From: an uncultured Acidobacteriota bacterium | GTDB taxonomy: Bacteria > Acidobacteriota > Thermoanaerobaculia > Multivoradales > UBA5704 | DNA length: 64,000 bases | Assembly: GCA_963770895.1 (NCBI GenBank) | Contig: CAVYRF010000001.1 | Coordinates: forward strand, 1,728,001-1,792,000 | Direction of reading: 5' to 3' | Shown here: positions 22,443 through 60,592 of the stretch, piece by piece | How the letters are laid out: each line of letters opens with the position of its first letter | How positions within the stretch are numbered: position 1 is the first letter of the stretch | Notes under the pieces: generated by a model | Seen by the model: only the letters and a program-made list of their open reading frames with translations | Told to the model about the DNA's origin: nothing | Databases searched by the model: none | Program-made: the position numbers and the translations under genes

Positions 22443-22703
22443 CAGAGCGCAAGCTCAGGCGCCGCGAGCCGCGCTGCGGCGGCGGCTCGTCCGGATGCCG
22501 AACCATCCTCCGCGGAGCGCAGTGCGCATTGCACACTGCGCAGGTGGCGCCCCGGGGCTCCGGCTTGCTCAGGTCGTGCTTGACAGCTGCACGGCTTCAA
22601 GAGATACACTTAAGCATCATTCGCGCAGCTTGAAAGCCATTGCACCCGCCGGTCGCGAGCCCATCTGGTGCCGATCGGTTGCCAGGCGGTGAGGAGTCAT
22701 CGA

Positions 22704-23948: not shown

Positions 23949-23999
23949 GCCCGCGGACCCGACACCAGGCCCGCGGCGATCGCACTTCGAGGGGACAGC

Positions 24000-33900: not shown

Positions 33901-33998
33901 CAGCACCGTGTACACCTGGTGGCTCATCTTCGCCCCCGCAACAGGCAGCAGGCTGCATCGTGGTGATGCGGTGAGATTCCCAGGATGTTCAGTGCCAA
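33901..33998 (-). pseudogene. Collapsed relic of a carbamoyltransferase paralog (first 62 nt fused to last 36 nt)
   Basis: 55/62 nt match to 44373-44434 and 32/36 nt match to 46113-46148 by manual alignment. Confidence 0.8.
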
Positions 33999-34113
33999 TC
34001 GCCTGCTTTCCGCGGTCCGCAAGGCCGCGGACAGCGCACCATCGCGCACCACCGCCGCGAAACCCATCCGCAGGGCACGATGTGCCGGCTCCCGAGGTGG
34101 AGTGACGGACGGC

Positions 34114-36354
34114 TCAACCGGCCACATCGATGGGCGCTTGCTGTCTCAGGGTGATCAACCCATGGCCGGCGAGTTTCTTGAGGTACCGCACCAGCCTCTC
34201 CACCTGCGGACTCTCGATGCTGCGCAGCAGATCGTCCAGCACGACCGGCTGGGGCGACTCCGTCAGCAACCGGTAGACCAGCGGGTCGAGGCAGATGCAC
34301 TTGGCACCCGCCATGCTCCAATATTTCCGCTGCCGTCCCGGCGCCAGGTTGGGCCGCGCCTCGGCCCACTCCTGAAACGAGCGGAGCGTCGGCTCGCGCG
34401 GCGTCTTGTCGAGCTGGCGCAGGTATGACGCCATGCTCTGGCGTTCTTTGATGATCTTGGCAAGATCGAATGGCGTATCGCGAACCACTCCCCGCGGTAC
34501 CACCACGCAGCCGTGCAAACCGGCATCGGCAATCTCGGTGCCATCGTCGCTGGTTTGTTGCAAATCGCGAAAAAAACGCCGTCCGTAATGATCGAAATAG
34601 ATCATGCTGTGCAGGCTGTCCACCCCTCCCGCCCAGGGCCTGCCCAGCAGGGCAGGAAAGACTCCCCCACGGTCTTCGAAGGAGGCATCCCGGTCCTCGG
34701 TGAGCAGCGTGCGCCCCTCGGCCTCGCCCGCTGCCTGTCCGTCCATCTCGTAGCCGGGAGCCCGTTCGATGTCGGCATCCTGCTTGTCGATCAACCGCAG
34801 TCCGAAACGCGAGGGGTCGCGGGCGACAATGGCCGACCCGGTGAGCTGGAAGGTCCCCATCCCGCCGGCGGACCAGAACCCGTCGTGCTCGCGGACGAAG
34901 CGCAGGGTCTCCTCTTTTTCGGCTGCGGTTTCCGACGGGAAGCCGCTGAATGTCATCAGCTGCACCGCCACTCCGGCGCCGGCAAAGTTCTTCATGGTCT
35001 CGCCCATGAAGGCAACCTTGGTGCCCTTGTCGATCAGATCGAGGACGCGCTGGTTGCCCGACTCCATGCCGAACGACACGCAGACGCAGCCGCTCTTCGC
35101 CAGCTTCTTGCAGCGCTCGGCGGAGAAGACCCTTTCCATGCGCAGCTCGGCGCCCCAGCGGATGTCCAGGCCGGCATCGACGATCGCATCGGTCAGGCGG
35201 TCCAGGTAGGCGGGCGACATCACGTCCACTGCGAAGTACACATAGCGGGTGTGGGTCGCGCCGACGATGTGAGCCAGATCCTCGATCACTTGATCCACGC
35301 CGCGCTCGCGCCACGGCGATGTCGGCTTCGAGGTGTTCAACCCATAGTCGCAGAAGGTGCAGCGATTCCAGTAGCAGCCGCGGGTCGGCGAGTAGTTGAT
35401 GCCGCGCTCCGGTGCCAGGTAGAGCTCCCATGGATAGCGGTAGAGGGGGCGGCCCAGCTGGGGTACGTTTTCATAGTGGATGTGCTGCGGCAGGAAGAGC
35501 TTCCCAGACCGTTTGTCGAAGGTGATCAGGTTCTGCACCCTGGCGCCAGGCACGACGCCGCCCGCATCGGCAATCTCGCACAGCGCAGTCTCGCCTTCGC
35601 CGACCACGATGCCGTCGCAGACGGCGAAAAAATCGGCCATGCGCTGCTTGTCTTTCATGTACTTGTAGAGCTGACTGATGGAGGTGCCGCCGAACAGCAC
35701 CTGCTTGGCAGGCCAGGCCTGCTTCACCCAGCGCGCCAGGTGCAAGGCGTGGAAAATCTGATGATCGTAGGCGACGCTGATGCCGACGCAATCGGCGGAG
35801 GAGAATTGCTCGTCCGCCGCCAGGCGCCCATCGAGGAAGCGGTCGAAGACCTGGCAGATCCTGCCGCCCAGGATCGGATCGAATAGATCGCGCAGATTGT
35901 AGGGTGAAAAGCGGCCGCGATTTGCCAGCCTGAAAGTGGTCAGCTCGCTCGGATAGCCGAGCGCTCCGAGCATCTCCATATAATCAGAGAGATCTGTTTG
36001 GTAGCGCTGGTAGTCTGGAAACGAAAGAAAGCAGCGGCGGTCACGCATCCCGGCGGCGGCGTGTCGAAGATCGTCATACCGCACCCGCCGCTGGCGCCAG
36101 AGTGCCAGATATTCTTCCTGCTCGGCAAAGCTGAGCGCAGCCTGGCGCTCGAAGGCGCTCAGCCGTCGCGCGGCCTCCTCGTAGAAGGCTGCGACGTTCT
36201 GCTCTTCCAGGGCCCAGTTGACCATCTCGATGTTGACGTCGCGGATCACCACGTCCGCAAACCCGGAATGAACCAGATGGCCGGCCAGGTAGGCGGTGGC
36301 GTGGTACGGCAGCGTCGGATCGTCGAGCGGAGGATGGGCCAACAGGATCTTCAT
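34114..36354 (-). CDS. B12-binding-type radical SAM enzyme, copy 1 (putative RiPP maturase)
   Basis: HPPLDDPTLPY N-terminus; Rossmann-like VGIS...FGG...IVVGEGE; RGCYWNRCTFCDY CxxxCxxC; FGMESG. Confidence 0.85.
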   Translation of the reverse strand: MKILLAHPPLDDPTLPYHATAYLAGHLVHSGFADVVIRDVNIEMVNWALEEQNVAAFYEEAARRLSAFERQAALSFAEQEEYLALWRQRRVRYDDLRHAAAGMRDRRCFLSFPDYQRYQTDLSDYMEMLGALGYPSELTTFRLANRGRFSPYNLRDLFDPILGGRICQVFDRFLDGRLAADEQFSSADCVGISVAYDHQIFHALHLARWVKQAWPAKQVLFGGTSISQLYKYMKDKQRMADFFAVCDGIVVGEGETALCEIADAGGVVPGARVQNLITFDKRSGKLFLPQHIHYENVPQLGRPLYRYPWELYLAPERGINYSPTRGCYWNRCTFCDYGLNTSKPTSPWRERGVDQVIEDLAHIVGATHTRYVYFAVDVMSPAYLDRLTDAIVDAGLDIRWGAELRMERVFSAERCKKLAKSGCVCVSFGMESGNQRVLDLIDKGTKVAFMGETMKNFAGAGVAVQLMTFSGFPSETAAEKEETLRFVREHDGFWSAGGMGTFQLTGSAIVARDPSRFGLRLIDKQDADIERAPGYEMDGQAAGEAEGRTLLTEDRDASFEDRGGVFPALLGRPWAGGVDSLHSMIYFDHYGRRFFRDLQQTSDDGTEIADAGLHGCVVVPRGVVRDTPFDLAKIIKERQSMASYLRQLDKTPREPTLRSFQEWAEARPNLAPGRQRKYWSMAGAKCICLDPLVYRLLTESPQPVVLDDLLRSIESPQVERLVRYLKKLAGHGLITLRQQAPIDVAG

Positions 36355-36396
36355 CGCACATCTCCTCGCGCCTTGAAGCTCATCAAGGGGGCCGCG

Positions 36397-36975
36397 CTAC
36401 TCCTGCCTGGCAAGCCTGGCGGCCTGCGCAGCCTGGTGCTCGGCGACGAGCGACTTGAGCTTCGGCCACATCTCCTTGTAGGGGCAAAGGGAGCTGTTGA
36501 GGAACCGGCCGGCGGCCGCCGACCAGCCCCTGCCCAGCGGCAGCATGCAGGCGCCGAACTCGACCAGCCGGGCTACATTGGCGCGCACCGCCGGATGCGC
36601 CCACATCTCCGGCGCCATCGCCGGGCCGAAGGCGACCGGCCCGGTGAAGCTCAGATAACAGTGGGCGAGCAGCGTCTCCGCCGAACCTCCGGCGCAGCGC
36701 GCAAGGGTGGTGGCGCTGGCCGGTGCGACCAGGAAGAGATCGATGTCCTTGACCAGTTCGGGCGGGGAACGCATCGGACGCGGGTCGGACCACGGATCGA
36801 CATGCACGTCGACGCGCACCATGGCCTCGAGCGCCTGCGGATTGACAAAGCGAGCGGCGGCTGACGTCATGACCACCCGCAGCTCCTCGACCTCGGGCTC
36901 GGCCCGGAGGTTGATCAGGTAGGAGTGGATGTTAAGGACGCCGATCGAGCCGCTCACGCCGACCAGGATTCTCAT
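36397..36975 (-). CDS. EpiD/LanD-like HFCD flavoprotein
   Basis: ILVGVSGSIG, APASATT, PAMAPEMW; stand-alone 192 aa with no CoaB domain; adjacent to a Cys-terminal peptide. Confidence 0.82.
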   Translation of the reverse strand: MRILVGVSGSIGVLNIHSYLINLRAEPEVEELRVVMTSAAARFVNPQALEAMVRVDVHVDPWSDPRPMRSPPELVKDIDLFLVAPASATTLARCAGGSAETLLAHCYLSFTGPVAFGPAMAPEMWAHPAVRANVARLVEFGACMLPLGRGWSAAAGRFLNSSLCPYKEMWPKLKSLVAEHQAAQAARLARQE

Positions 36976-36997
36976 CGCGCAGGCTCCGCGCGCTGCC

Positions 36998-37044
36998 GCC
37001 GGTCTGCCGGAGAGGGCGTGCGACCGCCGTCTTGGCAGACCGGC
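36998..37044 (-). promoter_or_regulatory. Stem-loop directly downstream of precursor 1
   Basis: GCCGGTCTGCC (36998-37008) pairs with GGCAGACCGGC (37034-37044). Confidence 0.55.
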
Positions 37045-37053
37045 CCTGACAGC

Positions 37054-37197
37054 TCAACAGCCGCCGTTGTTGTTGATATTGGTTTCTTCGTCTGAGGATG
37101 CCGCGCCGCCCGAGACATCTTCCAGCACGGTTTCGTCGATCTCACCGCTGCCAGCGTCCTCGAGTTCCTTTGCAACGTCTTCCGGTTTCTGGTCCAT
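37054..37197 (-). CDS. RiPP precursor peptide 1 (47 aa)
   Basis: MDQKPEDVAKELEDAGSGEIDETVLEDVSGG|AASSDEETNINNNGGC; AAGGAGG RBS; double-glycine leader. Confidence 0.88.
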   Translation of the reverse strand: MDQKPEDVAKELEDAGSGEIDETVLEDVSGGAASSDEETNINNNGGC

Positions 37198-37280
37198 GGA
37201 TTGCCTCCTTTGCCGGATCGCGACCGGCATTTGTCTGGTAAGGCACGCGGCACATGCCGCGCCCGTCGAAACCCTTACAT

Positions 37281-38756
37281 CTACTCGACGCCAGCCGCGG
37301 CGGTCTCGCCGTGCAACGGCACCGATGTCGATTCGCTTCGCCCCTCGACGGCGTCGATCAGTTCGAACTTGGCATTCCGGCGCAGCGGCGAGCACGGCGA
37401 ACTGCCGGTGTCCATGCGGATCTGCGGGCAGTAGACACCCTGGCAAACCGGCAGGATGGTGCACTTCCGGCACTTGGGGTCCTGCTCGAAGGCCGGTTCG
37501 GTCCACAACGCAAGCTTGTCCTGATCGAGCTCCATGCGACCGTCGGGGCGGAGGTAGCCCACCACGTTGCGGTCGTGCTTGTCGAGGTCGACCGTGCACT
37601 TCATCACCTTGCCGCTCGCCCCGATCAGGAAGTTGTAAGGCCGCGCCGCGTAGCAGACGTGCGAGCCCAGGCCCACTTCGGTGATCCCCGAGGCAAGGCT
37701 GAGGCCGCGCCGCTGGGCCTCCTTTTTCATCTCGCGTTCCATGCTCCAGGCGTCCTCGACGCCGCAGACCGCAAGGCTGGCGTCGTTCGGCCCACCCCAC
37801 TTGCCGACGGCGTAGAAGCGCATCTTGAAGCGCGGATCGCCGCCGAGCTCGCGCTCGATGATGTCGAGAAAGCCGCGGTAGCTCATCACGTTGTTGCGGT
37901 CGAAGTTGAAGCGCAACATGACCGTGAAGTCCTCGCTGCGGCGTGACAGCGCCTTGAGGTTGGCGAGGATGGTGCCGAAGGTTTCCTGGCCGTCGCGGGT
38001 GGGTCGAGTGCGGTTGTGGTCCTCCGGCACTCCGTCGATGGTGATCTGGAAAAACGCCACTTCCCAGGCCAGGAGCCGCTCGGCCACCTCCGGTGTGAGC
38101 AGGAAGGCGTTGGTGGTCATGTTGCTGGAGAAGCGGACCGAGTGTTCGCGGGCGATCGCCTGGAAGAACGGCGCGAGGTCCTCGATGGCCTCGAAGCCGT
38201 AGAGCGGCTCGCCGCCGAACCACGCCACCGACAGAGAGCTGAGCGAGCGGATGCGCGATTCGGTCAGCTTCTTGATGGCGGTGCGCACCGCCGGCTGCAT
38301 GGTGCCGCGGGCGAAGTCCTCGTAGCAGTAGGTGCAGCGGAAGTTGCAGTCTTCGGAGGCGAGGAGGATGAGTTGCAGGATGTCGGTGCGGTACTGGGCC
38401 TGGCCGAATTCGAGCTGGATGCGCCGGTATTCGTCAGTCCCCTCCTGGACCAGGAAGCCACGCTCGTAAAGGAGCTTGACGGCGCCCCGCCGTGCCGCCG
38501 TAAAACCCTTCTGCGTCAACAGGGTCTCGATCTTACGCCGGACTGCGACGGGGAAGACGCTCATCGTGCCGCGCAAGCTGTTCCACAGCACCAGACGGCC
38601 GTCGGTGGTGGTGGCGCGGGTGTTGTAGCGCGAGGGCACCCACCGCGTGGCGCCGGCCTCGGCCATCGCACTCCCTCCGGCGGGCACCGAGGGGATCTCC
38701 GTGTCGAGAGGAGATCGCACCAGAATGGGAAGCTTATCGCCGAGGCCGAGACTCAT
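37281..38756 (-). CDS. Radical SAM/SPASM peptide maturase
   Basis: RRE-like N-term (SRYN...LVLWNSLRG...GFLV); CNFRCTYCY; WFGGEPL; SPASM cysteines CYAA..KC..KCRKCTILPVCQGVYCP..C. Confidence 0.9.
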   Translation of the reverse strand: MSLGLGDKLPILVRSPLDTEIPSVPAGGSAMAEAGATRWVPSRYNTRATTTDGRLVLWNSLRGTMSVFPVAVRRKIETLLTQKGFTAARRGAVKLLYERGFLVQEGTDEYRRIQLEFGQAQYRTDILQLILLASEDCNFRCTYCYEDFARGTMQPAVRTAIKKLTESRIRSLSSLSVAWFGGEPLYGFEAIEDLAPFFQAIAREHSVRFSSNMTTNAFLLTPEVAERLLAWEVAFFQITIDGVPEDHNRTRPTRDGQETFGTILANLKALSRRSEDFTVMLRFNFDRNNVMSYRGFLDIIERELGGDPRFKMRFYAVGKWGGPNDASLAVCGVEDAWSMEREMKKEAQRRGLSLASGITEVGLGSHVCYAARPYNFLIGASGKVMKCTVDLDKHDRNVVGYLRPDGRMELDQDKLALWTEPAFEQDPKCRKCTILPVCQGVYCPQIRMDTGSSPCSPLRRNAKFELIDAVEGRSESTSVPLHGETAAAGVE

Positions 38757-38782
38757 GGCCGATCCTCCTTGGTAACACGCTT

Positions 38783-38811
38783 ACTGTAGATAAGCAATTT
38801 CATTTTGTCAA
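38783..38811 (-). promoter_or_regulatory. sigma70-type promoter for the SPASM-precursor-flavoprotein-rSAM operon
   Basis: Minus strand TTGACA-17 nt-TACAGT, then AAGGAGGA RBS and ATG at 38756. Confidence 0.65.
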
Positions 38812-38997
38812 GTTATGCGTAAGTCTATTATTCCTACATAGATGCAAGTTGGCGCGAAGGAACGCGCATGCTCTCCTCCCGCTTGGGGTCCGCGATGGCC
38901 GGCTTGCGCAGACGCGCTGGTGGTCGCGCCTTGCCTTCTGGCGTTAGGCCAGGGCAGCCCTCATAATCCGCCCCATGGAATGGAAAGGAGTCTCAGG

Positions 38998-39993
38998 ATG
39001 ACCTGTCGCCCGCCGCGGCCGCCGGCCTTTGCCATCGCCCTGCTGTGCGGAGCGCCGCTGTTCGCCCCTGGCGTCGCCGCCGCGCAGCAGGGCGCGCCGC
39101 CCGATCCCGCGGCGTATCAGCAGGAGATCGAAGCGTGGCGCGCCAACCGCGTCGCCAGCCTCAAGCAGGACCAGGGGTGGCTGGCCGACGCGGGCAGGTT
39201 CCGGCTGGACGAGGGAGAAAGCCGCGTCGGCAGCGATCCGGCGTCGCGCGTGCTGCTGCCGTCCGGCAGGGCGCCCGCCTTTGCCGGCACGCTGGCGCGG
39301 CACGGCGACGCGGTAACCTTCGTGCCCGCTCCCGGCCTGGCTCCGCCGCCCACCGCCGAGCGCCACCAGAACGGCGACCACGGCGCCCTGCTGGCCGCGC
39401 CGGCCGGCGGCGCCTTTGCGGGATCGCTGGTCCTGGCGGACGACAGCACCGAAGGCGGCCCGACCGTCGTCCACCTGGGCGCGATTTCGTTCTATGTCAT
39501 CCGGCGCTTCGACAAGATGATCGTCCGCGTCAAGGACGCCCAGGCCCCGGCGATCGCCGCCTTCCAGGGCATCGACAACTTCCCGCTGCGCGCCGACTGG
39601 CGGGTCCAGGCCCGCTTCGAGCCCTACAAGCCCCCCAAGCCGCTCACCATCACCAACGTCGTCGGTGAGATCGACGACGGCCTGGTGCCCGGCGCGGTCG
39701 TCTTCGACCACGACGGCCACTCCTACCGCCTGGACGCTTTCGACGAGGCCGACGGCCGCCTCTTCATCGTCTTCGGCGACCAGACCAACGCCTTCGAAAC
39801 CTACGGCGCCGGCCGCTTCCTGGACGCCGAAAAGCCCGCCAAGGACGGCCGCCTGATTCTCGATTTCAACAAAGCGTACAACCCCCCGTGCGCCATCTCC
39901 ACCTACGCCGTCTGCCCTCTGCCGCCGCGCCAGAACCGCCTCCCCGTCCAGGTCCAGGCCGGCGAAAAGACCTTCCGCGGGGCCCACGGCTGA
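38998..39993 (+). CDS. DUF1684 family secreted protein
   Basis: FGDQTNAFETYGAGRFL, LDFNKAYNPPCA..CPLPP..N.L...V.AGEK. Confidence 0.88.
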   Translation: MTCRPPRPPAFAIALLCGAPLFAPGVAAAQQGAPPDPAAYQQEIEAWRANRVASLKQDQGWLADAGRFRLDEGESRVGSDPASRVLLPSGRAPAFAGTLARHGDAVTFVPAPGLAPPPTAERHQNGDHGALLAAPAGGAFAGSLVLADDSTEGGPTVVHLGAISFYVIRRFDKMIVRVKDAQAPAIAAFQGIDNFPLRADWRVQARFEPYKPPKPLTITNVVGEIDDGLVPGAVVFDHDGHSYRLDAFDEADGRLFIVFGDQTNAFETYGAGRFLDAEKPAKDGRLILDFNKAYNPPCAISTYAVCPLPPRQNRLPVQVQAGEKTFRGAHG

Positions 39994-40122
39994 GACGCCT
40001 CCCTTCTCAATGGCAGCCGCGCGACCTTGACTTGCCGCAGGGTTGCGCACAGCATATTGCGAAGATGCGTTAGTGCAAGCCACTGGACCTGACTCGGCCC
40101 GGTGGCGGGGGAGCGTGGCACC

Positions 40123-41364
40123 ATGATTCCCTACTTTCTGAACCTCGGCCAGAGCATCGAACGGGCCTGGCTGGCGCGGGGCTACGACGAAGAGGTGTTC
40201 CCTACGCTGGCGGTGGATCTCCTGGCGGAGAATCCACCGCAGCAGCATGTCGGGACGGCGGATGTCGTCGATTGGGTCTTCGGTACTTCCCACCCCTTTT
40301 TGCAGCCCGCTGGACGCGCCTTTTTCGGCGAGCCGCCGGTGCTGGTCTACCAGGGGCCGCGGTTCTATATCGAAGTTCTGTTCTGGATGGCGGCGACCAC
40401 CTCCATCCACGAGCATGGCTTCAGCGGCGCTTTCGCGGTCCTGGCCGGATCGAGCGTGCACAGCCACTGGCGTTTCGCGCGCGAGCGGACGATCAATTCC
40501 CGCCTGCTGTGCGGCCGGCTGGAGCGCGTGTCGACCGAGATCCTGCGGCCCGGCGCCATCCGCCAGATCGACTCCGGCAGCCGGCTGATCCACCAGCTTT
40601 TCCACCTGGAGCTGCCGTCGGTCACGATCGTCGTGCGTACCTATTCCGATCGCAAACATCAGCCGCAGTATCAGTACCTGCCGCCGGGACTGGCGATCGA
40701 CCCCGAGGACCACGACCCGCTGCGGGCGCGGCGCCTGCTGCTGCTCGACAACATGGCCCGCGGCCGGCTTCCGGGCCTGCCGGAGTACGCCGGCAGGCTC
40801 ATCGCCGTCGCCGATCCGGAGACGCTGTGGCAGATGTTCTCGACCTTGACCCGCCGCAAGGTGGACCGCGGCCTGCTCGACGGCCTGTTCCGGCTTGCCC
40901 GCGACCGCCACGGCGACGTGGTGGACCTGTTCCGCCGGGTGTGCGAAGACGAGCGGCGCACCCGCGTGGTGACCGCGCTGCGGGAAAAAGTCGTCGATCC
41001 GCAGGCGCGGTTCCTGCTGGCGCTGCTGATGCTGATGCCCGATCGCGACGCGATCGTCGAAACCGTGCAGCAACAGTTTCCCAACCTGCAGCCGGTGCCG
41101 GCGATCGAAACCTGGGTCGCATCCATGGCCGGCAAGGAAACCATCGGCTTTCACCTCACCGACCTCAACCGCCTCATCTTCCGCGGCCTGGTGGAAGGTG
41201 TCGACGCGGATGGCCTCTTGCAGCGGTTGCGGACCCAGCTCCAGGACGGCGCCGCCACCGATCCCGAGCACGCGCTCGACCACGCCAAGCGCATGGCGCG
41301 GCTGGACCTGTTCTATCCGTTGTTTTCACGTTCGCCGCTGCGCGAAGCGGCGCGGATGGCCTGA
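40123..41364 (+). CDS. Hypothetical protein with a cupin (thiol-dioxygenase-like 3-His) domain
   Basis: TTSIHEHGFSGAFAVLAG and distal LIHQLFH; helical C-terminal half. Confidence 0.6.
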   Translation: MIPYFLNLGQSIERAWLARGYDEEVFPTLAVDLLAENPPQQHVGTADVVDWVFGTSHPFLQPAGRAFFGEPPVLVYQGPRFYIEVLFWMAATTSIHEHGFSGAFAVLAGSSVHSHWRFARERTINSRLLCGRLERVSTEILRPGAIRQIDSGSRLIHQLFHLELPSVTIVVRTYSDRKHQPQYQYLPPGLAIDPEDHDPLRARRLLLLDNMARGRLPGLPEYAGRLIAVADPETLWQMFSTLTRRKVDRGLLDGLFRLARDRHGDVVDLFRRVCEDERRTRVVTALREKVVDPQARFLLALLMLMPDRDAIVETVQQQFPNLQPVPAIETWVASMAGKETIGFHLTDLNRLIFRGLVEGVDADGLLQRLRTQLQDGAATDPEHALDHAKRMARLDLFYPLFSRSPLREAARMA

Positions 41365-41470
41365 ACGGCCGGCGGGCTACGGGCGAAGGGGCGGCGTCCT
41401 GCGATGGCGTGCCGGTGCGACGCCCCCGGCCCTGCTGTGTACAACCAGACGGGCCAGGGGCACCGGGAGC

Positions 41471-41584
41471 TCAGTTGGGATTGTTGATGATGTTGTTGTT
41501 GTCGTCCGGCTTCGCATCGCCGCCCGACACGTCTTCCAGAACCTCGTCATCCAGCTCTGCACTCTTGGACTTCTCGTCGGCCAT
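41471..41584 (-). CDS. RiPP precursor peptide 2 (37 aa)
   Basis: Hand translation MADEKSKSAELDDEVLEDVSGG|DAKPDDNNNIINNPN*; AAAGGAG RBS; same LEDVSGG leader as peptide 1; below the ORF-track cutoff. Confidence 0.88.
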   Translation of the reverse strand: MADEKSKSAELDDEVLEDVSGGDAKPDDNNNIINNPN

Positions 41585-41676
41585 GGGATGGCTCCTTTGG
41601 GTGAATACCTCCGTTCAACATGAACGAAGGCCGTCATCAGCGTGGTTGCTATCCGCCATTGCAAGGTCAGGCGGGC

Positions 41677-44001: not shown

Positions 44002-44372
44002 TTGCGACCTCCTTGGCGTTGCGTTCCGCCTGCCGTCGGAGCGAAGGATCTGCCGGGGCGTCTCCTTCGTCTCATGGTGCTTCGTATATGCCAACATTAC
44101 CCTATAACAGTGAGTAGTTGATACGCAATACAACGTACAAATGAAATCATGTTTAATACCTGACAGGGGTGGTCAGTTTATGGGACAAGCGCCCCAATTA
44201 CAGGCCGCGCCAGACTCTTTTCGCCGGGTTTTTGTGCTGCTCAATCTGTGCTAAGTGCCTTGTAGAAATCGATGCTTACGTAGTACTCTCTGTTTTGCGC
44301 GGTTTTGTGAGGCCGCGGGGCGCTGTCCTGGGCCTGGCAGGCCTCTCCTCGTGGAGCGCGGGACAAGGGCGA

Positions 44373-46151: not shown

Positions 46152-46181
46152 GTTTGCCAGCGCCCTTACCCTGGAGGAGCC

Positions 46182-48212: not shown

Positions 48213-48224
48213 CCCCTCCGCGGA

Positions 48225-50642: not shown

Positions 50643-50715
50643 GGTCACCTCGTCGTCCTGGTTCACCAGCAGATCGACAGCTAAGCAGTGTAGCAGGCTC
50701 GCGTCGTAGCGGGCG

Positions 50716-51903: not shown

Positions 51904-51932
51904 CGCTATAGCATATGGTGGAGAGAGCGAGC

Positions 51933-53537: not shown

Positions 53538-54775
53538 TCTTCCGCAAGGTGGCGCTGGAGCGCCTGTCGTCGCCCGAGCAGCTGGACCAGCTCCTGGAAG
53601 TCACCACGCCCATCGGCTGGCTGGCGCTCGCGGCGCTCGGCGCGCTGGTGGCGGCGGGGATGGCCTGGGCGCTGTTCGGCTCCATCCCGACGCTGGCCGC
53701 CGGCGAAGGCATCCTGCTGCGCCGCAGCGGCGTCATGGACTTGGTGGCGACCGCCGGCGGCCAGGTCGACGAAGTGCTGGTCCACGTCGGCGACGTGATC
53801 GAAAAGGGCCAGCGCGTGGCCTCCATCCGCCAGCAGGGGCTGCTGCGCCAGATGGAAGACCTGCGCGGCAAGCGCGCGGTCCTCGACCAGGAGTACCAGG
53901 CGCTGCTGCGGTTCACCGCCGGGCAGCAGCAGCTCAAGCAGAGCGAGCTCGAGCAGCAGCGCGCCAACCTGCAGCGCACCGTGGCCGCGCTGGGCAGAAA
54001 CGTGCAGCTGCTGGTCGAGCGCGTCACCGCCGAGCAGAAGCTGGTCGACGACGGATTGATCACCAAGCAGACCCTGCTGGCCTCCGAGCAGAGCTTGAAC
54101 ACCGGCCGCGACCAGCTGGCCGCCGCCCGCGTCGACCTCGCCGACCTCGAGCTCAAGCGGCGGGAATCGGAGGAGGCGCAAAAGGAGCAGCTGCTGGCGC
54201 GCAGCGCCCTGATCCGCGACCTGGACTCGCAGATCCACGAGCTGCAGGCCAGACTGCGCGAAGACGTCGACGTGGTTTCGCCCTACCGCGGCCGGGTGCT
54301 CGAACTGATGGTCAATCGCGGCGACCTGGTCAACCCGGGAGCGCCGATGCTCAACCTGGAGATGATCGGCGACGATCTGCTGGCGGTCCTCTTCGTGCCG
54401 GCGACGATGGGCAAGCGGGTGCAGCAGGGGATGCTGGTGCGGATCTCGCCGTCGACCGTCAACAGCGAAGAATACGGCTACATGCTCGGGCGGGTGAACT
54501 GGGTCGCCGACTACCCGTCCACGGCGCGCGGCATGACCCGCCTGCTGGCCAACGAAGCGCTGGTCAACCGCCTGATGGCGGCCGGGCCGCCGGTGCAGGT
54601 CAACGTGGCGCTGATCGCCGACGCCGCGACGCCGACCGGCTACCGGTGGTCGTCGATGCGCGGCCCCAGCCTCAAGATCAGCAGCGGCACGCTGGCCTCC
54701 GGCAGCATCGTGGTGCGCCAGGACCATCCCCTGCACCTGCTGGTGCCGACGGTGCGCGAGCGGCTCGGTGTCTGA
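53534..54775 (+). CDS. NHLM bacteriocin system secretion protein (HlyD-like)
   Basis: MIFRKVALERLSSPEQLDQLL signature; coiled coil; TPTGYRWSS; ATGA overlap with the TolC gene. Confidence 0.9.
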   Translation: MIFRKVALERLSSPEQLDQLLEVTTPIGWLALAALGALVAAGMAWALFGSIPTLAAGEGILLRRSGVMDLVATAGGQVDEVLVHVGDVIEKGQRVASIRQQGLLRQMEDLRGKRAVLDQEYQALLRFTAGQQQLKQSELEQQRANLQRTVAALGRNVQLLVERVTAEQKLVDDGLITKQTLLASEQSLNTGRDQLAAARVDLADLELKRRESEEAQKEQLLARSALIRDLDSQIHELQARLREDVDVVSPYRGRVLELMVNRGDLVNPGAPMLNLEMIGDDLLAVLFVPATMGKRVQQGMLVRISPSTVNSEEYGYMLGRVNWVADYPSTARGMTRLLANEALVNRLMAAGPPVQVNVALIADAATPTGYRWSSMRGPSLKISSGTLASGSIVVRQDHPLHLLVPTVRERLGV

Positions 54776-56981
54776 ACCTGCCGCCCCTGCCGATCCCGCC
54801 GCCGCCGCTGCCGCACCGGGCGAGCGGCGGCGGCCGCGGCGGGTGCGCACGCCGACGGTGCTGCAGATGGAGGCGGTGGAGTGCGGCGCCGCGGCGCTCG
54901 CCATCGTCCTGGCCACCTTCAACCGCTGGGTGCCGCTCGAGCAGCTGCGCGTCGCCTGCGGCGTGTCGCGCGACGGCAGCAAGGCCAGCAACGTGGTCAA
55001 GGCGGCGCGCACCTTCGGCCTGGAAGCCAAGGGCTACAAGAAGGAGCCGGCGGCGCTGCGCGACCTCGTGCCGCCGATGATCCTGCACTGGAACTTCAAC
55101 CATTTCGTGGTGCTCGAAGGGTGGAAGCGCGGCCGCGTCTACCTCAACGACCCGGCCTCGGGGCCGCGTACCGTCAGCGAAGAAGAGCTCGACCAGGCGT
55201 TCACCGGCGTCGTGCTGGTCTTCCGGCCGGGTCCCGGCTTCCAGCCCGGCGGCGGCGCCCCCAGCCTGCTCGCCGCGCTGCGCCAGCGGCTGGCCGGAAT
55301 GCGCGCGGCGCTGGCCTTCGCGCTGCTCACCGGCCTGGCGCTGGTGGTCCCCGGCCTGGCGGTGCCGGCGTACTCCAAGGTGTTCGTCGACGAAGTGCTG
55401 CTCGCCGGGCACCACGACTGGATGCTGCCGCTGATGGGGCTGATGGTGGTGACGGCGCTCGCCAGCGCCGCCCTGATCTGGCTGCAGCAGGCCTACTTGC
55501 TGCGCATGGAAACCAAGATGGCGCTGGCCGGTTCCAGCCGTTTCCTGTGGCACGTCCTGCGGCTGCCGCTGGAATTTTTCAACCAGCGCTTCGCCGGCGA
55601 CATCAGCTCGCGGGTGGCGATCAACGACCAGGTGGCGGGCCTGCTGTCGCGCGACCTCGCCTCGGGCGCCCTGGGGGCCCTGGTGGTGGTCTTCTACGCC
55701 ATCCTGATGCTGCGCTACGACGTGCCGCTGACCGTCCTGGGGCTGGTGATCGTGTCGCTCAACGTCGCCGCCCTGCGCTACGTGTCGCGCCAGCGGGTGG
55801 ACGGCAACCGCCGCCTGGCGCAGGACCGCGGCAAGCTCCTGTCGACCGCCATCGGCGGCTTGCAGATGATCGAGACGCTCAAGGCCATGGGCTCGGAGTC
55901 GGACCTGTTCGCGCGCTGGGCGGGCCACCAGGCCAAGGTGGTCAACGCGCGCCAGGGTCTGGAACGCTACACCCAGGTGCTCGGCGCCGTGCCGCCCGCG
56001 CTCGCGGCGCTCAACACCGCGGCGATCCTGGGCGTCGGCGGCCTGCGCGTCGCCAACGGCGGCCTCAGCCTGGGCGGCCTGGTGGCCTTCCAGGTGCTGA
56101 TGGCGGGGTTGACGGCGCCGGTCGAACGGCTGGTGAACCTCGGCGGCCAGCTGCAGACCGCGGAAGGAGACATGAGGCGCCTCGACGACGTGCTGCGCTA
56201 CCCGGAGGTGGCGGGCGGCGACGCGCCATCCGAGCCGCTGCCCGCCGGCCAGCCGGTGCGCCTGGCCGGACACCTCGAGCTGCGCGACGTCTCGTTCGGC
56301 TACAGCCGCCTGGATCCGCCGCTCATCGAAGGCTTCCACCTGGACCTCAAGCCGGGCGCGCGGGTGGCGCTGGTGGGCGGCTCGGGCAGCGGCAAATCGA
56401 CCATCGCCAAGCTGGTGCTGGGACTCTACGAGCCCTGGGAGGGCCAGATCCTGTTCGACGGCCGGCCGCGCCGCCAGGTGCCGCGGCGGGTGCTCGCCAA
56501 CTCGCTGGCGTACGTCGACCAGTCGATCTTCCTGTTCGAGGGCACGGTGCGCGACAACCTGACGCTGTGGGACTCGACCGTGCCGCTGCCGGAGATGATC
56601 GGCGCGGCCAAGGACGCCTGCATCCACGACGTCATCGCGGCCAAGGTGGGCGGCTACAGCAGCACGGTGCAGGAAGACGGCGCCAATTTCAGCGGCGGCC
56701 AGCGGCAGCGCCTGGAGATCGCCCGCGCGCTGGTCGGCCGGCCGCGCCTGATCGTGCTCGACGAAGCCACCAGCGCGCTCGACCCGGTGACCGAAGCAGA
56801 GATCGATCGGCACCTCAGGCGGCGTGGCGTCACCTGCCTGATCGTCGCCCACCGGTTGAGCACCATCCGCGATGCCGACGAGATCATCGTGCTCGACAAG
56901 GGCAAGGTGGCGCAGCGCGGCACCCACGACCAGCTCAAGGACGCGGCCGGCGCCTACGCCCGCCTGATCGGCGCCGAATGA
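54768..56981 (+). CDS. NHLM-type ABC transporter, C39 peptidase/permease/ATPase
   Basis: TPTVLQMEAVECGAA (catalytic Cys), HWNFNHFVV, NDPA; GGSGSGKST, FSGGQRQR, LDEATS. Confidence 0.93.
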   Translation: MSEPAAPADPAAAAAAPGERRRPRRVRTPTVLQMEAVECGAAALAIVLATFNRWVPLEQLRVACGVSRDGSKASNVVKAARTFGLEAKGYKKEPAALRDLVPPMILHWNFNHFVVLEGWKRGRVYLNDPASGPRTVSEEELDQAFTGVVLVFRPGPGFQPGGGAPSLLAALRQRLAGMRAALAFALLTGLALVVPGLAVPAYSKVFVDEVLLAGHHDWMLPLMGLMVVTALASAALIWLQQAYLLRMETKMALAGSSRFLWHVLRLPLEFFNQRFAGDISSRVAINDQVAGLLSRDLASGALGALVVVFYAILMLRYDVPLTVLGLVIVSLNVAALRYVSRQRVDGNRRLAQDRGKLLSTAIGGLQMIETLKAMGSESDLFARWAGHQAKVVNARQGLERYTQVLGAVPPALAALNTAAILGVGGLRVANGGLSLGGLVAFQVLMAGLTAPVERLVNLGGQLQTAEGDMRRLDDVLRYPEVAGGDAPSEPLPAGQPVRLAGHLELRDVSFGYSRLDPPLIEGFHLDLKPGARVALVGGSGSGKSTIAKLVLGLYEPWEGQILFDGRPRRQVPRRVLANSLAYVDQSIFLFEGTVRDNLTLWDSTVPLPEMIGAAKDACIHDVIAAKVGGYSSTVQEDGANFSGGQRQRLEIARALVGRPRLIVLDEATSALDPVTEAEIDRHLRRRGVTCLIVAHRLSTIRDADEIIVLDKGKVAQRGTHDQLKDAAGAYARLIGAE

Positions 56982-56994
56982 GCCGCGGCCAGCC

Positions 56995-59967
56995 ATGACC
57001 GAGCCCGCCGCGCAGGACCGCCTGGCGACGTCGCTCGCGGCCGCCGCCCAGGGGCTGGCGCTCACCGCCGCCTCGCCGCTGCGCCTGGACACCTCGGCGG
57101 CGCTCTGGCTGGTCGACTCCGGGCGGCTGGAGGTGTTCGCGGTGGTGGAGAAGGAGGGACCCGGCGCGGAGCCCGGCGCGCGCAGCCACCTCGCCACCGC
57201 GACCGCCGGCCAGCTGCTCTGCGGGCTGGCGTCGGCGGCGGGCGATGCCGGCGTCGGCGTCGGCGTCCTCGCGGTGGCAGCCCCCGCGGCGCGCCTGCTG
57301 CGGCTGGAGCCGGCCGCGGTGCGGCGGCTGGCCGCCGAGCCGGCGCTGCGCGAGCCGCTGGCAGTGCTGCTGGACGGCTGGCTGAGCCTGCTGGCGGCGG
57401 CGCTCGCCACGGAGCCGGGGCCGCGCGCCTTCACCGAGCTGCGGCGCGGCACCCAGGTGGATCTCGAGGCCGGGCGCCCGGCGCGGTGCCGCGAGGGCGC
57501 CGTCTGGGTGCGCCAGGTGAGCGGCGCGAGCGCGCTGCTGGGGCGGCCCGACCTGACCGTCGCGGCGGGCGAGCTGGCGCCGGTCGCGGCGGAGAGCTGG
57601 CTGGTCGCCGCCGAGCCGTCGTGCCTGACGGTCAGCGGCGGCGCCCACCTGGTGGCGGGCGACGACCTGTGGGCGGCGCTCGCACGCTTCCACGGCCGCT
57701 GGCTGGCGACGCTGGCGCGGCAGCGGGCCGGCAGCGAACGGCTGGACCGCGACCGCCTGGAGCGCAAGACGGCACTGGACCGCCAGCTGCTGCGCGGCGC
57801 CTTCACGCGCCTGGCCTCCGTGCTGGCGGCGGACCACCCGGCCGCCGGTGCTGAAGTCGCCGGCCAGGACGCCGCGGCCCAGCCCCTGCTGGCGACCTGC
57901 CGGCTGGTGGCGGCGGCGCAAGGCATGCGCTTCCAGGGCCGCCCCGAAAGCGCCGCCGGCGACCGCCGCCCGCCGGCCGGCGAGCACCTGGCCAGCCTCT
58001 GTGCGGCGGCGCGGGTGCGCCACCGGCGGGTGATCCTGCGCGGCGCCTGGTGGCGCCACGACAACGGCCCGCTGGTGGGCTTCCTGACGCCGCCGGCGGG
58101 GCCGGGGCCGACGGCGAGCCGGCCGGTCGCCTTGCTGCCCAGCTCGCGCACCAGCTACGACCTGGTGGACCCGGCGGCGGGCCGGCGGGCGACGGTCGAC
58201 CAGGCGACGGCCGAAAGCCTGGGGGCCGAAGCGTTCATGCTGTACACGCCGCTGCCCGAACGGCCGGTGACCGCCCGCGACCTGCTGCGCGCGGCGCTCG
58301 GCGGCCGGCGCGGCGACCTGTGGACGTTGCTGCTGATGGGGCTCGCCAGCGGCATTCTGGCGCTGCTGGTGCCGATCGTCACCGGCCAGGTGTTCGGCCA
58401 CGCGATCCCGGACGCCGACCGGCCGGGGCTGCTCCAGCTCACCCTGGTGCTGGTGGTCGGGGCGCTCGCGGCGAGCGCTTTCCAGCTCACCCGCAGCTTC
58501 ACCGTGGTGCGCCTGAGCGCCCGCCTGGAAGGCAGCGTCCAGGCGGCGATCTGGGATCGCCTGCTGGCGCTGCCAGTGGCCTTCTTCCGCCGCTACTCGG
58601 TCGGCGACCTGGCCGACCGCTCGCTGGGCGTCGAGCGCATCCGCGAGCTGCTCACCGGCAACGTCGTCACCTCGATCCTGGCCGCCGTCTTTTCGGTCTT
58701 CAGCTTTGCCCTGCTGTTCTATTACAGCTGGTCGATGGCCCTCATGGCCACGGCCCTGGTGGCGGTGCTGGTGGCCGCCACCGCGCTGCTCACCTGGATG
58801 CAGCTGCGCCATCAGCGCAGCCTGCTGGCCCGCCAGGGCAAGATTGCCAGCCTGCTGCTGGGCCTCATCCGCGGCATCGCCAAGCTGCGGGTGGCGGCGG
58901 CGGAGGAGCGCGCCTTCAGCCGCTGGGCGGAGAGCTTCGCCGAGCAGCGGCGCTTCTCGGTCGAGGCGCGGCGGATCGCCAACGCCCAGTCGGCTTTCAA
59001 CGCCGGCTATGGCGTGCTCACCTCGCTCGCCATCTTCGCCATGGTCACCTGGTCCAGCGCCGCCGGCATGCCGGTGGGCGACTTCCTGGCCTGGAACGCG
59101 GCGTTCGCCCAGTTCCTCACCGCCGCGCTGGCCACCGTCGCGCTGCTGTCGAGCATGCTCACCATCGTGCCCCTCTACGAGCGCCTGCAGCCCATCCTGG
59201 CGGCGGTCCCCGAAGTCGACGCCGGCCAGGCGGACGCCGGGGACCTGACCGGCGACATCGAATGCAGCCACCTGTGCTTCCGCTACGACGAACAGGGACC
59301 GCTGATCCTGGACGACGTCTCGTTCCACGCCGCCGCCGGCGAGTTCGTGGCGCTGGTCGGCGCCTCGGGCTCGGGAAAATCGACCTGCCTGCGCCTGCTG
59401 CTGGGCTTCGATCGGCCGGAGTCGGGATCGATCTATTTCGACGGCCAGGACCTGGCGGCGCTCGGCGTGCAATCGGTGCGCCGCCAGATCGGCGTGGTCA
59501 TGCAGCACAGCCGGATCGCGGTGGGCGACATCTTCACCAACATCGTCGGCGGCTCCAACCTGACGCTCGACGACGCCTGGGAGGCGGCCCGCATGGCCGG
59601 CATCGAGGACGACGTCCGCGCCATGCCGATGGGCATGCACACGGTGGTGAGCGAGGGGGGCGAAACGTTCTCGGGCGGTCAGAAGCAGCGGCTGCTGATC
59701 GCCCGCGCCATCATCAACCGGCCGCGCATCCTGCTGTTCGACGAAGCCACCAGCGCGCTCGACAACCGCACCCAGGAGATGGTGAGCCGCAGCCTCGAAG
59801 GGCTCAAGGCGACGCGCATCGTCATCGCCCATCGCCTGAGCACCATCGTCAACGCCGACCGCATCTACGTTTTCGACGCCGGGAAGGTGGTGGAGGTCGG
59901 CAGCTACCGCGAGCTGGTCGAGCGCGGCGGCATCTTCTCCGCCCTGGCGAGGCGGCAGCTGGCGTGA
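56995..59967 (+). CDS. NHLM-type ABC transporter, permease/ATPase (no peptidase)
   Basis: WWRHDNGPLV, GASGSGKST, FSGGQKQR, FDEATS; degenerate cNMP-like N-terminus. Confidence 0.92.
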   Translation: MTEPAAQDRLATSLAAAAQGLALTAASPLRLDTSAALWLVDSGRLEVFAVVEKEGPGAEPGARSHLATATAGQLLCGLASAAGDAGVGVGVLAVAAPAARLLRLEPAAVRRLAAEPALREPLAVLLDGWLSLLAAALATEPGPRAFTELRRGTQVDLEAGRPARCREGAVWVRQVSGASALLGRPDLTVAAGELAPVAAESWLVAAEPSCLTVSGGAHLVAGDDLWAALARFHGRWLATLARQRAGSERLDRDRLERKTALDRQLLRGAFTRLASVLAADHPAAGAEVAGQDAAAQPLLATCRLVAAAQGMRFQGRPESAAGDRRPPAGEHLASLCAAARVRHRRVILRGAWWRHDNGPLVGFLTPPAGPGPTASRPVALLPSSRTSYDLVDPAAGRRATVDQATAESLGAEAFMLYTPLPERPVTARDLLRAALGGRRGDLWTLLLMGLASGILALLVPIVTGQVFGHAIPDADRPGLLQLTLVLVVGALAASAFQLTRSFTVVRLSARLEGSVQAAIWDRLLALPVAFFRRYSVGDLADRSLGVERIRELLTGNVVTSILAAVFSVFSFALLFYYSWSMALMATALVAVLVAATALLTWMQLRHQRSLLARQGKIASLLLGLIRGIAKLRVAAAEERAFSRWAESFAEQRRFSVEARRIANAQSAFNAGYGVLTSLAIFAMVTWSSAAGMPVGDFLAWNAAFAQFLTAALATVALLSSMLTIVPLYERLQPILAAVPEVDAGQADAGDLTGDIECSHLCFRYDEQGPLILDDVSFHAAAGEFVALVGASGSGKSTCLRLLLGFDRPESGSIYFDGQDLAALGVQSVRRQIGVVMQHSRIAVGDIFTNIVGGSNLTLDDAWEAARMAGIEDDVRAMPMGMHTVVSEGGETFSGGQKQRLLIARAIINRPRILLFDEATSALDNRTQEMVSRSLEGLKATRIVIAHRLSTIVNADRIYVFDAGKVVEVGSYRELVERGGIFSALARRQLA

Positions 59968-60022
59968 GGCCGCATGCCGCCGCCGCGCCCGACCGATCCA
60001 CCCGTTTCCCTCAGGGGGGGCC

Positions 60023-60592
60023 ATGCGCAAAGTACTCTTCCTCTTCGGCCAGCTCAACGACGACGACGTCGAGTGGCTGATCGCGAGCGGCACGGTGCGC
60101 CAGGTGGCGCCGGGCGAAATCCTCATCCGCCAGGGGACCCACGTCGACGCCGTGTTCATCCTGCTCGCCGGCCGCCTGTCGGTGCTGCTGGCGCGGACAG
60201 GCGATCGTGAGATCGCGCGCCTGCAGGCCGGCGAGATCGCCGGCGAGATGTCGTTCCTGGATTCACGGCCGCCGTCGGCGACGGTGTGCGCCCTGGAGAC
60301 GTCGACGGTGTACGCCATCCCGCGCGCGATGCTGGCGGCGCGGCTCGCCGCCGACCTGGGCTTCGCCGCCCGCTTCTACCGGGCGCTGGCGATCTTCCTC
60401 GCCACCACCGTGCGCGAGCGCCACCGCAGCCTGGTGCTGACCGCCGGGGACGTCGGCCCGGCACCGCAGGCGGCCTTGGTCGCGGACGACGAAGAGGACG
60501 ACGCCGACGAGCTCGAAGGCAACGTGCTCGACAACGTCTACCTGGCGGGCGAGCGCTTCAACCGCATGGTCCGGCGCCTGACCGGAGCCTAG
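60023..60592 (+). CDS. Cyclic-nucleotide-binding domain protein
   Basis: MRKVLFLFGQLNDDDVEWL, GEIAGEMSFLDSRPPSATV. Confidence 0.88.
   Translation: MRKVLFLFGQLNDDDVEWLIASGTVRQVAPGEILIRQGTHVDAVFILLAGRLSVLLARTGDREIARLQAGEIAGEMSFLDSRPPSATVCALETSTVYAIPRAMLAARLAADLGFAARFYRALAIFLATTVRERHRSLVLTAGDVGPAPQAALVADDEEDDADELEGNVLDNVYLAGERFNRMVRRLTGA

Follow-up and report, generated by a model that had tools for sequence, protein, structure and literature searches.

A putative composite RiPP gene cluster of a soil acidobacterium and a family of B12-type radical SAM enzymes that accompanies asparagine-rich precursor peptides

Acidobacteria, which abound in soil, are difficult to culture, and their chemistry is almost unexplored. 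The 64,000-nucleotide stretch analysed here (contig CAVYRF010000001.1, positions 1,728,001 to 1,792,000; hereafter the window) belongs to the 8.16-Mb, three-contig genome of a soil acidobacterium that resembles Thermoanaerobaculia, and its named relatives are metagenome-assembled genomes (MAGs) of Thermoanaerobaculia and other Acidobacteriota. The window carries a gene cluster for peptides that are ribosomally synthesised and modified post-translationally (RiPPs), with two Asn-rich precursor peptides, three radical S-adenosylmethionine (rSAM) enzymes and an exporter. Judging from sequence, we lean towards the view that this composite cluster makes two exported, modified Asn-rich peptides, through ring formation in the second precursor and the action of B12-type rSAM enzymes on Asn.

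The closest described counterparts each resemble a part of this cluster. In the syc system of Streptomyces ureilyticus, as set out in the available text of PMC10989515 (the original study is Cheng et al., Angew 2023, according to the portion of PMC11162475 that cites it), the LanD-like enzyme SycD turns the C-terminal Cys22 of the 22-aa precursor SycA into an enethiol, and SycC, an rSAM/SPASM enzyme, takes the hydrogen from the Cβ of Asn19 and forms the unsaturated thioether AviCamCys. The window shares with syc an rSAM/SPASM enzyme, a LanD-like flavoprotein and an Asn three residues before a C-terminal Cys (Asn19/Cys22 in SycA, N-G-G-C in precursor 2), a likeness that rests on the published description of SycC and SycD and not on sequence homology. 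It differs from syc in its additional B12-type rSAM, its double-glycine leader and its further Asn residues, in having an NHLP exporter in place of the MFS transporter of syc, and in a flavoprotein that lacks the canonical His and Asn. The same text of PMC10989515 names NxxcB as a relative of SycC. This rSAM/SPASM enzyme acts on an NxxC motif and likewise bonds the Asn Cβ to the sulfur of the Cys, but its ring is saturated and needs no flavoprotein, which would be the outcome in the window if the divergent flavoprotein were inactive.

Other pathways offer parallels to the remaining enzymes. The clavusporin system MpcB/MpcC, as described in the accessible part of PMC10849626, offers a likeness in its B12-type rSAM, which modifies a short core several times in a leader-dependent manner and also has a non-canonical cluster motif. 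However, MpcB, which has CX7CX2C and depends on a DUF5825 partner, methylates Pro, Val, Ile and Thr at the β-position (PMC10849626), whereas the window enzymes, compared with it by description only, have CX4CX2C and Asn-rich cores, and no DUF5825 match was found. Proteusins, such as polytheonamide with its enzymes PoyB and PoyC, share B12-rSAM C-methylation of ribosomal peptides (a prediction in the case of the window), Asn-rich cores and an exporter of the TIGR03794/03796/03797 family; unlike them, the window lacks an NHLP or Nif11 leader domain, an rSAM epimerase and an Asn N-methyltransferase. Crocagin is similar in combining an oxygenase with a NodU-type carbamoyltransferase in a RiPP cluster: in the available description, the dioxygenase CgnC hydroxylates and the carbamoyltransferase CgnI then acts (PMC10070186). 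CgnC is characterised there as a dioxygenase only, whereas the window cupin is thiol-dioxygenase-like and linked to the peptides by gene neighbourhood alone.

The two small genes that define the cluster are genuine precursor genes by the features of their sequence. Precursor 1 (pre1; 41471-41584, minus strand; 37 aa) consists of the 22-aa leader MADEKSKSAELDDEVLEDVSGG and the 15-aa core DAKPDDNNNIINNPN, and precursor 2 (pre2; 37054-37197, minus strand; 47 aa) of the 31-aa leader MDQKPEDVAKELEDAGSGEIDETVLEDVSGG and the 16-aa core AASSDEETNINNNGGC. Both leaders close with LEDVSGG, and in both genes the Shine-Dalgarno sequence AAAGGAG lies 6-8 nt ahead of the ATG. A six-frame scan of the window found acidic double-glycine leaders and NNN runs only at pre1 and pre2, and a profile of 11 such peptides, run against the whole genome, gave strong matches only to the same two (1e-15 and 7e-13). 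Across these 11 aligned peptides, L, E, V, G and G of the leader are invariant, and the cores are variable but Asn-rich. Homologous peptides adjoin a B12-rSAM gene in genomes of the same family (G010, G011, G020, G021, G022) and in the loci L030 and L031, and one adjoins a cupin gene in G015. In addition, the gene order SPASM-pre2-HFCD-B12a is present on two short metagenome contigs of a relative that is 88.5-89.5% identical; in its pre2 ortholog, LEDVSGG and the eight C-terminal residues NINNNGGC are unchanged, whereas AASSDEET is replaced by ELSDAEPN. The Shine-Dalgarno sites, the uniqueness of the leaders and NNN runs, the invariant leader residues and the conserved ortholog together establish the two precursors as real. 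Their leaders match no NCBIfam model and contain neither an NHLP nor a Nif11 leader domain; in sibling clusters of Micromonospora, by contrast, leaders of the NHLP type are present. Two more double-glycine peptides, with Cys-rich cores and leaders ending in ERVAGG and DSVSGG, are encoded elsewhere in the window's own genome (G000, contig C2; L119:1450-1617 and L120:1474-1635).

The uncharacterised core element of the system, which an earlier note on this DNA had not singled out, is the family of B12-type rSAM enzymes (B12-rSAMs) paired with Asn-rich cores. The window encodes two paralogs that are 67% identical. Paralog a (34114-36354, minus strand, 746 aa; Pfam Radical_SAM 1.3e-11) is the last gene of the SPASM-pre2-HFCD-B12a operon, and paralog b (41677-44001, minus strand, 774 aa; Radical_SAM 3.6e-9) lies directly upstream of pre1. 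In a tree built from the first 70 of the 118 proteins over 700 aa that were listed, they fall into different clades, and paralog a forms its clade together with three metagenome proteins. Their matches to the Pfam B12-binding model (28.6 bits for a, 29.5 for b) lie under the cut-off of 32.1, and the cluster motif is CX4CX2C (C327, C332, C335), invariant in 15 aligned homologs, rather than the canonical CX3CX2C. No NCBIfam model reaches its cut-off in this family; TIGR03975, the model for RiPP C-methyltransferases of the PoyB/C type, gives 72.7 and 81.9 bits versus a cut-off of 281.85. A PDB sequence search with the family profile returned nothing at E <= 0.01. The predicted structure, whose predicted local distance difference test score (pLDDT) is only 72.9, matches the folds of OxsB, AprD4, MgmA (the glutamine C-methylase of methyl-coenzyme M reductase) and CysS, aligning over 340-420 columns to OxsB, MgmA and CysS. 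A C-terminal strand-strand-helix-helix-helix arrangement (residues 673-734), delimited from secondary structure alone, could form a leader-binding winged helix.

This family is large. Among 8000 scored candidates, 690 proteins belong to it at E <= 1e-20, a library of 1.84 billion sequences holds 784 representatives (50% identity) at E <= 1e-30, and in a set of one genome per species 206 stretches encode a relative. Of the loci found with the B12-rSAM profile, 79 were kept, and the locus counts given here refer to these; the counts of enzyme co-occurrence exclude tblastn hits with a query coverage below 40%. Five types of leader are recognised across the 79 loci, namely short acidic leaders ending in GG; leaders of the form PEELEPRLELQ...DP, beside a daptide-like intramembrane protease; NHLP leaders ending in GG, accompanied by YcaO and TfuA; NHLP leaders ending in AAG; and actinomycete leaders ending in VEGQ. 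A leader-class peptide with at least two Asn within eight core residues is present in 56 of the 79, and Asn makes up 26.5% of 40 distinct cores versus 1.8% of the large proteins of the window; for both figures, cores outside 5-45 aa and leaders longer than 140 aa were dropped, and the SNNVCC peptide of L052 is uncounted. The regular expressions came from these data themselves, and many loci are Micromonospora near copies, which makes this count descriptive and not a statistical test. The argument that ties B12-rSAMs to Asn rests on the five independent leader architectures.

The simplest relatives are minimal acidobacterial clusters composed of a poly-Asn precursor, a daptide-like intramembrane HExxH protease whose N-terminus is PqqD-like, a B12-rSAM and an ADOP permease. 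Poly-Asn precursors, with 7-13 Asn, lie at L036:8394-8585, L037:4733-4972, L033:8351-8524, L040:8023-8205 and L047:8462-8629, and near-homopolymer cores include NNNNNNNNNNNN in L036 and L037 and QQQQQQQQQQQQQ in L032. In the two minimal clusters examined (L036 and L047), the precursor has only the protease, the B12-rSAM and the ADOP permease as neighbours, so that the poly-Asn core is accompanied by no modifying enzyme other than the B12-rSAM. In L032, from the Holophagales MAG G015, the precursor (8060-8638, plus strand) carries instead a poly-Gln core of 13 consecutive Gln behind a PEELEPRLELQ leader, next to a B12-rSAM that is 57% identical. A protein of 447 aa, encoded between the B12-rSAM and the poly-Asn precursors, was considered as a cupin homolog; this assignment was rejected, and the protein is the protease with the PqqD-like N-terminus.

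Further loci of this family contain other assemblages. In the Micromonospora and Actinoplanes loci L056-L100 (for instance L072:7017-12121), precursors with NHLP leaders and cores such as VAPAADNNVNIIAVLIV or NNVNNNLYQSK adjoin genes for YcaO, TfuA, a B12-rSAM of 36-38% identity and an NHLP exporter. We know of no characterised product for these clusters. In L051 (3474-4382, minus strand), three tandem small ORFs with an ITELEDRLEF leader end in FFPKCTINIKPA, FFPKCTINIQPA and FFPKCTINVPQ; a B12-rSAM (51% identity) and a cupin homolog (32% identity) are encoded about 6 kb away.

The second main element is the pre2 operon, which encodes the predicted enzymes for a ring between Asn and Cys. Its rSAM/SPASM peptide maturase (37281-38756, minus strand; 491 aa by the longest ORF, with an uncertain start) carries a CX3CX2C motif (residues 137/141/144) and, in its C-terminal part, eight further Cys. 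It matches SPASM maturase models over their full length (TIGR04463, 190 bits over positions 1-430 of 438, under the cut-off), and its best PDB match is the thioether-forming CteB (3e-14). The pre2 core ends in NINNNGGC, so the terminal N-G-G-C places an Asn at position -3 relative to the terminal Cys. The combination of B12-rSAM, SPASM enzyme and HFCD flavoprotein recurs in 16 of the 79 loci, all of them from actinomycetes. For 15 of these 16 a precursor could be identified, and N-x-x-C closes every one of them, with termini such as QADSNTNVVC, MNKNNCLC, MADTNNNLC, QNKNNTLC, VNDNQVNVLC, VNDNNNCLC and SNNVCC. When the Nonomuraea SPASM enzyme was compared with the host genome, its sole match was the window SPASM enzyme (29% identity, 6e-34); the Nonomuraea HFCD likewise found the window HFCD first (41%, 1.7e-19), followed by a CoaBC-like protein (1e-12). 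By analogy with the characterised systems, a ring between the Cβ of Asn(-3) and the Cys sulfur is a firm prediction for pre2: the rSAM/SPASM enzyme would remove the hydrogen from the Cβ of this Asn, which stands three residues ahead of the C-terminal Cys, and join the carbon to the Cys sulfur, giving a four-residue ring. The subfamily of the window SPASM enzyme may also serve other substrates, since long-leader precursors, Nif11-like by eye and with the cores AWNDPPPPGTTGTGSGSGSTGG and WTGDPPPPGTGGGG, adjoin its homologs in G020 (joined coordinates 8966-10351 of L020-L021) and G027 (L114:12150-12734).

The nature of this ring would depend on the LanD/CoaC-like HFCD flavoprotein (36397-36975, minus strand, 192 aa; Pfam Flavoprotein 8e-21), which matches CoaBC, EpiD, MrsD and CypD in the PDB. 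If it first oxidatively decarboxylates the Cys, an unsaturated AviCamCys would result, as made by SycC/SycD; if it does not act in this way, the product would be a saturated β-thioether, as made by NxxcB. The His67 of EpiD and the Asn of the PxMNxxMW motif are, as we take it, catalytic residues of LanD-like HFCDs. In an alignment with EpiD, CoaBC, PPCDC and thioviridamide-type decarboxylases, the window HFCD has Pro at the position of His67 and PAMAPEMW in place of PxMNxxMW. The HFCD of the close metagenomic relative carries the same substitutions, and the actinomycete HFCDs keep the His in 16 of 16 cases and the Asn in 15 of 16. Cys decarboxylation by the window enzyme is thus in doubt, as both canonical residues are replaced.

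The two B12-rSAM paralogs, b with pre1 and a with pre2, would each act on the rest of the Asn tract, most likely through iterative C-methylation at Cβ, by analogy with PoyB/C and MpcB. The literature searched, with most subscription journals outside it, contains no B12-rSAM acting on Asn, no poly-Asn RiPPs and no such enzyme set, and the available parts of the reviews PMC11285071 and PMC12931638 do not mention them either.

Apart from the replaced residues of the flavoprotein, several observations weigh against the composite reading with Asn as the modified residue. No precursor was recognised in 23 of the 79 loci, and the 56 positive loci include many near-identical ones from Micromonospora, which are not independent. 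No RNA run carrying these sequences was found, the matches being four soil-metagenome DNA runs of one study, each with 0.29-0.41 of the words. Pre1 contains no Ser, Thr, Tyr or Cys that could be a target for the carbamoyltransferase or a thiol dioxygenase. As to the B12-rSAMs, C-methylation is inferred from their relatives, the best fold matches are OxsB (1.5e-11) and AprD4 (1.2e-10), neither of them a methylase, and the enzymes combine the motif CX4CX2C with scores far under the RiPP C-methyltransferase model. These features make it a serious rival, albeit an unlikely one, that the B12-rSAMs are not methyltransferases and carry out another radical reaction on carboxamide side chains, such as crosslinking, rearrangement or dehydration. 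OxsB, AprD4 and BchE all depart from methyl transfer, the scores stay far below every curated methylase model, and the family, which shares a conserved N-terminal domain, makes up a large clade of its own. On the other hand, two methylases, MgmA and CysS, also rank within the top six fold matches, the highest NCBIfam scores come from P- and C-methyltransferase families, and the RiPP B12-rSAMs listed in the available part of a 2024 review are all methylases (PMC11285071). Less probable still is that the enzymes methylate aliphatic residues among the Asn (Ile, Val, Thr, Pro), like PoyC and MpcB, with Asn serving in recognition or structure only. Cores do often alternate Asn with Ile, Val or Thr (NNNIINN, TNINNN, DNNVNII, SNTNVV), and Pro, Val, Ile and Thr are what MpcB β-methylates in the accessible text of PMC10849626. 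However, runs of 7-13 consecutive Asn, and the one poly-Gln core, leave almost no other target, and in L036 and L047 no modifying enzyme besides the B12-rSAM is present. Iterative C-methylation of Asn stays the reaction we regard as most likely.

The weighing extends to the genes that surround the precursors. The idea that pre1 and pre2 are chance ORFs among unrelated enzyme genes draws on the frequency of spurious ORFs in high-GC DNA, and has practically no probability left: both have a Shine-Dalgarno sequence, homologs with the conserved leader stand beside the same enzymes in at least nine other loci, and a close relative has an ortholog, so that the conservation data already refute it. Far harder to dismiss is the separation of the cupin, carbamoyltransferase and SGNH/TPR genes, described below, into a small-molecule or glycan module of their own, with the peptides modified by the three rSAM enzymes only, with or without the HFCD; we consider this a real possibility, short of an even chance. 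It would account for the absence of a hydroxyl or thiol from pre1, and it agrees with two findings that count against a composite pathway, namely a second carbamoyltransferase-SGNH pair in G020 among unrelated genes with no RiPP neighbours, and the occurrence of the cupin in genomes where no B12-rSAM homolog was found (G005, G006, G027, G030). Carbamoyltransferase orthologs are also 82-84% identical across genera versus 53-71% for other cluster genes. Against such a separation, the three genes stand beside LEDVSGG-type precursors in four loci of different genera (the window, L029, L030 and L113), with another gene order in each; in L113 the precursor sits directly between the cupin and SPASM genes; and the nearest solved relatives of the carbamoyltransferase are natural-product tailoring enzymes. 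The link of these three genes to the peptides, as suggested by gene neighbourhood, is uncertain.

The three genes themselves lie between and beyond the precursors. The 413-aa cupin (40123-41364, plus strand), which has a C-terminal helical domain and a family of more than 539 members, matches no Pfam model (CDO and PCO included) and no NCBIfam model, and a PDB sequence search gave nothing useful. Its AlphaFold2 model (pLDDT 87.7) resembles thiol dioxygenases over the N-terminal half only: the Foldseek matches listed to rank 50 (43 rows; E 7e-6 to 9e-5) are all thiol dioxygenases or their homologs, among them CDO, ADO, PCO and 3-mercaptopropionate (3MDO-type), mercaptosuccinate and ergothioneine dioxygenases. 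H96, H98, H113, H157 and H161 are invariant in 24 sequences. A predicted complex of the cupin with pre2 scored 0.13 against a mark of 0.32, which is a basis for no conclusion. The NodU/CmcH-type O-carbamoyltransferase (44373-46151, plus strand; 592 aa from MALNILG) matches Carbam_trans_N/C at 2e-69 and 4e-68 and, in the PDB, NovN (1.6e-103), GdmN and TobZ. Next to it, the 676-aa SGNH-like/TPR protein (46182-48212, plus strand) gives 26.7 bits against Lipase_GDSL_2 (cut-off 32.9) and no match in a PDB sequence search; its gene is always paired with that of the carbamoyltransferase, and the pair is kept in L029, L030, L031, L113 and L116. L113 (G015:C3:1251700-1271699) is a sibling without a B12-rSAM gene, which contains an NHLP exporter, SGNH, carbamoyltransferase and cupin genes, a precursor that joins a leader ending in LEDVSGG to the core AEPTNNGCPVTNTNCPSCGPSDS, and a SPASM gene. 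By eye, nearby genes in L113 resemble a LanB C-terminal-like protein and a JmjC-type cupin. With less certainty than for the rSAM enzymes, the cupin, carbamoyltransferase and SGNH/TPR protein would add oxidation and carbamoylation, or related tailoring.

The exporter is complete. It comprises a TolC-family outer membrane channel (51915-53537, plus strand; Pfam OEP 1.2e-30), an NHLP HlyD-type adaptor (53534-54775, plus; TIGR03794, 344.5 bits versus 156.2), the NHLP C39 peptidase/permease/ATPase ABC1 (54768-56981, plus; TIGR03796, 1073 bits versus 853; Peptidase_C39 1.1e-33) and the NHLP permease/ATPase ABC2 with a 295-aa N-terminal extension (56995-59967, plus; TIGR03797, 919.5 bits versus 709.4), the scores of all three NHLP proteins exceeding the curated NCBIfam cut-offs. 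Both the Cys (in ECGAAAL) and the His (in NHFVVL) of the C39 domain are present; this domain would cut after GG, and ABC1/ABC2, HlyD and TolC would carry the cores across both membranes. Two further genes would, less certainly, serve export or immunity: an ADOP-family duplicated FtsX/MacB permease (48225-50648, minus strand; TIGR03434, 823 bits versus 622), a kind found in 17 of 26 acidobacterial B12-rSAM loci, and a DUF7005 protein with the HExxH motif HEGAH (50716-51903, minus; Pfam DUF7005 4.6e-138). DUF7005 belongs to the system, as three Terriglobia loci (L039, L044, L045) carry TolC-HlyD-ABC1-ABC2-DUF7005-cNMP-B12-rSAM on one strand.

The exporter genes are followed by a cyclic-nucleotide-binding, bacteriocin-transport-associated protein (60023-60592, plus strand; Pfam cNMP_binding; TIGR03896, 149 bits, just under the cut-off of 161) and a Zn-ribbon/adenylate cyclase/AAA/TPR regulator (60707-64000, plus; recognised by Pfam), which runs past the window end. 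Homologs of this regulator (53-58% identity) stand beside related clusters in L027, L030, G020 and L113, and it is likely linked to the cluster. The DUF1684 gene (38842-39993, plus; Pfam DUF1684 4e-44) has no counterpart in any of the 79 related loci and probably lies outside the pathway. Genes in this DNA of about 70% G+C were called by third-position GC and then scanned against Pfam and NCBIfam. Upstream, from 16.4 to 33.7 kb, the genes are unrelated (CHAT/TPR, ferritin-like, LodA-like oxidase, acyltransferase, aldo-keto reductase, SDR); among them, a ferritin-like gene is followed by one for a LodA-like L-lysine epsilon-oxidase (LodA_N, LodA_C) at 22668-26060. The biosynthetic half (34001-46000) has 64-68% G+C versus 70-76% in the flanks and the exporter half, which is compatible with horizontal acquisition. 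A scan for promoters and terminators stayed at chance level, with 1 promoter-like site versus 0.8 expected and 6 terminator-like sites versus 5.6.

The gene content that the earlier note had read from the sequence is borne out. Both precursors with their shared leader and cores of 15 and 16 aa, the two B12-type rSAM paralogs (with B12-binding matches under the cut-off), the single rSAM/SPASM enzyme, the HFCD flavoprotein, the carbamoyltransferase and the C39-ABC/ABC/HlyD/TolC set are all present; its HExxH protein is DUF7005 and its permease belongs to ADOP. The cupin is supported by predicted fold and has no Pfam match, the SGNH-like protein is there with a name that depends on a Pfam match below the cut-off, and the DUF1684 gene within the span had gone unmentioned. 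None of LanB/C/M/KC, YcaO or TfuA, which the earlier note had reported as missing, occurs among the 26 proteins scanned from 16.4 to 64 kb.

With respect to interpretation, the description as a RiPP cluster agrees with the conservation of the small ORFs beside these enzymes in other genomes, and the proposed cleavage after GG with export of the cores is well founded as a prediction from the C39 domain. The statement that no characterised family has this enzyme set is wrong for pre2, where the SPASM enzyme, LanD-like flavoprotein and N-x-x-C end follow the syc/AviCamCys logic described in the available text of PMC10989515. The proposal of a new RiPP class holds in so far as no paper or NCBIfam model was found for the whole set. 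It does not hold for the cluster as one indivisible class: as its modules also occur separately elsewhere, the cluster is a mosaic. The known components are the pre2 module, of the AviCamCys/NxxC thioether kind, and the standard NHLP exporter; the new ones are the pairing of B12-rSAMs with Asn tracts, the divergent flavoprotein and possibly the cupin-carbamoyltransferase tailoring.

Taken more broadly, the 750-aa B12-rSAMs may represent an undescribed, widespread RiPP family, mostly of soil Acidobacteria and actinomycetes, with the modification of Asn/Gln side chains as its hallmark. Tentatively, its simplest form would convert poly-Asn or poly-Gln into a poly(C-methyl-carboxamide), to which the window would add an Asn-Cys thioether ring made with a flavoprotein devoid of the canonical LanD catalytic residues, and peptide tailoring by a thiol-dioxygenase-like cupin and an O-carbamoyltransferase; we regard this extended proposal as possible rather than probable. 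Within the literature searched and the accessible parts of the reviews, no poly(C-methyl-carboxamide) modification of Asn or Gln is reported for any natural product.

The cluster thus points to a large, unstudied family of radical enzymes. The substrate preference of its B12-rSAMs can be read from genomes, because Asn/Gln tracts recur behind five unrelated leader types, and the minimal relatives, with a precursor, a protease, one enzyme and a permease, offer a clean one-enzyme test for a possibly new modification of Asn. The recently discovered ring logic of AviCamCys (Asn-Cys) is extended by the window beyond Streptomyces into a Gram-negative phylum, and the window HFCD provides a natural experiment on whether Cys decarboxylation can proceed without the canonical His and Asn.

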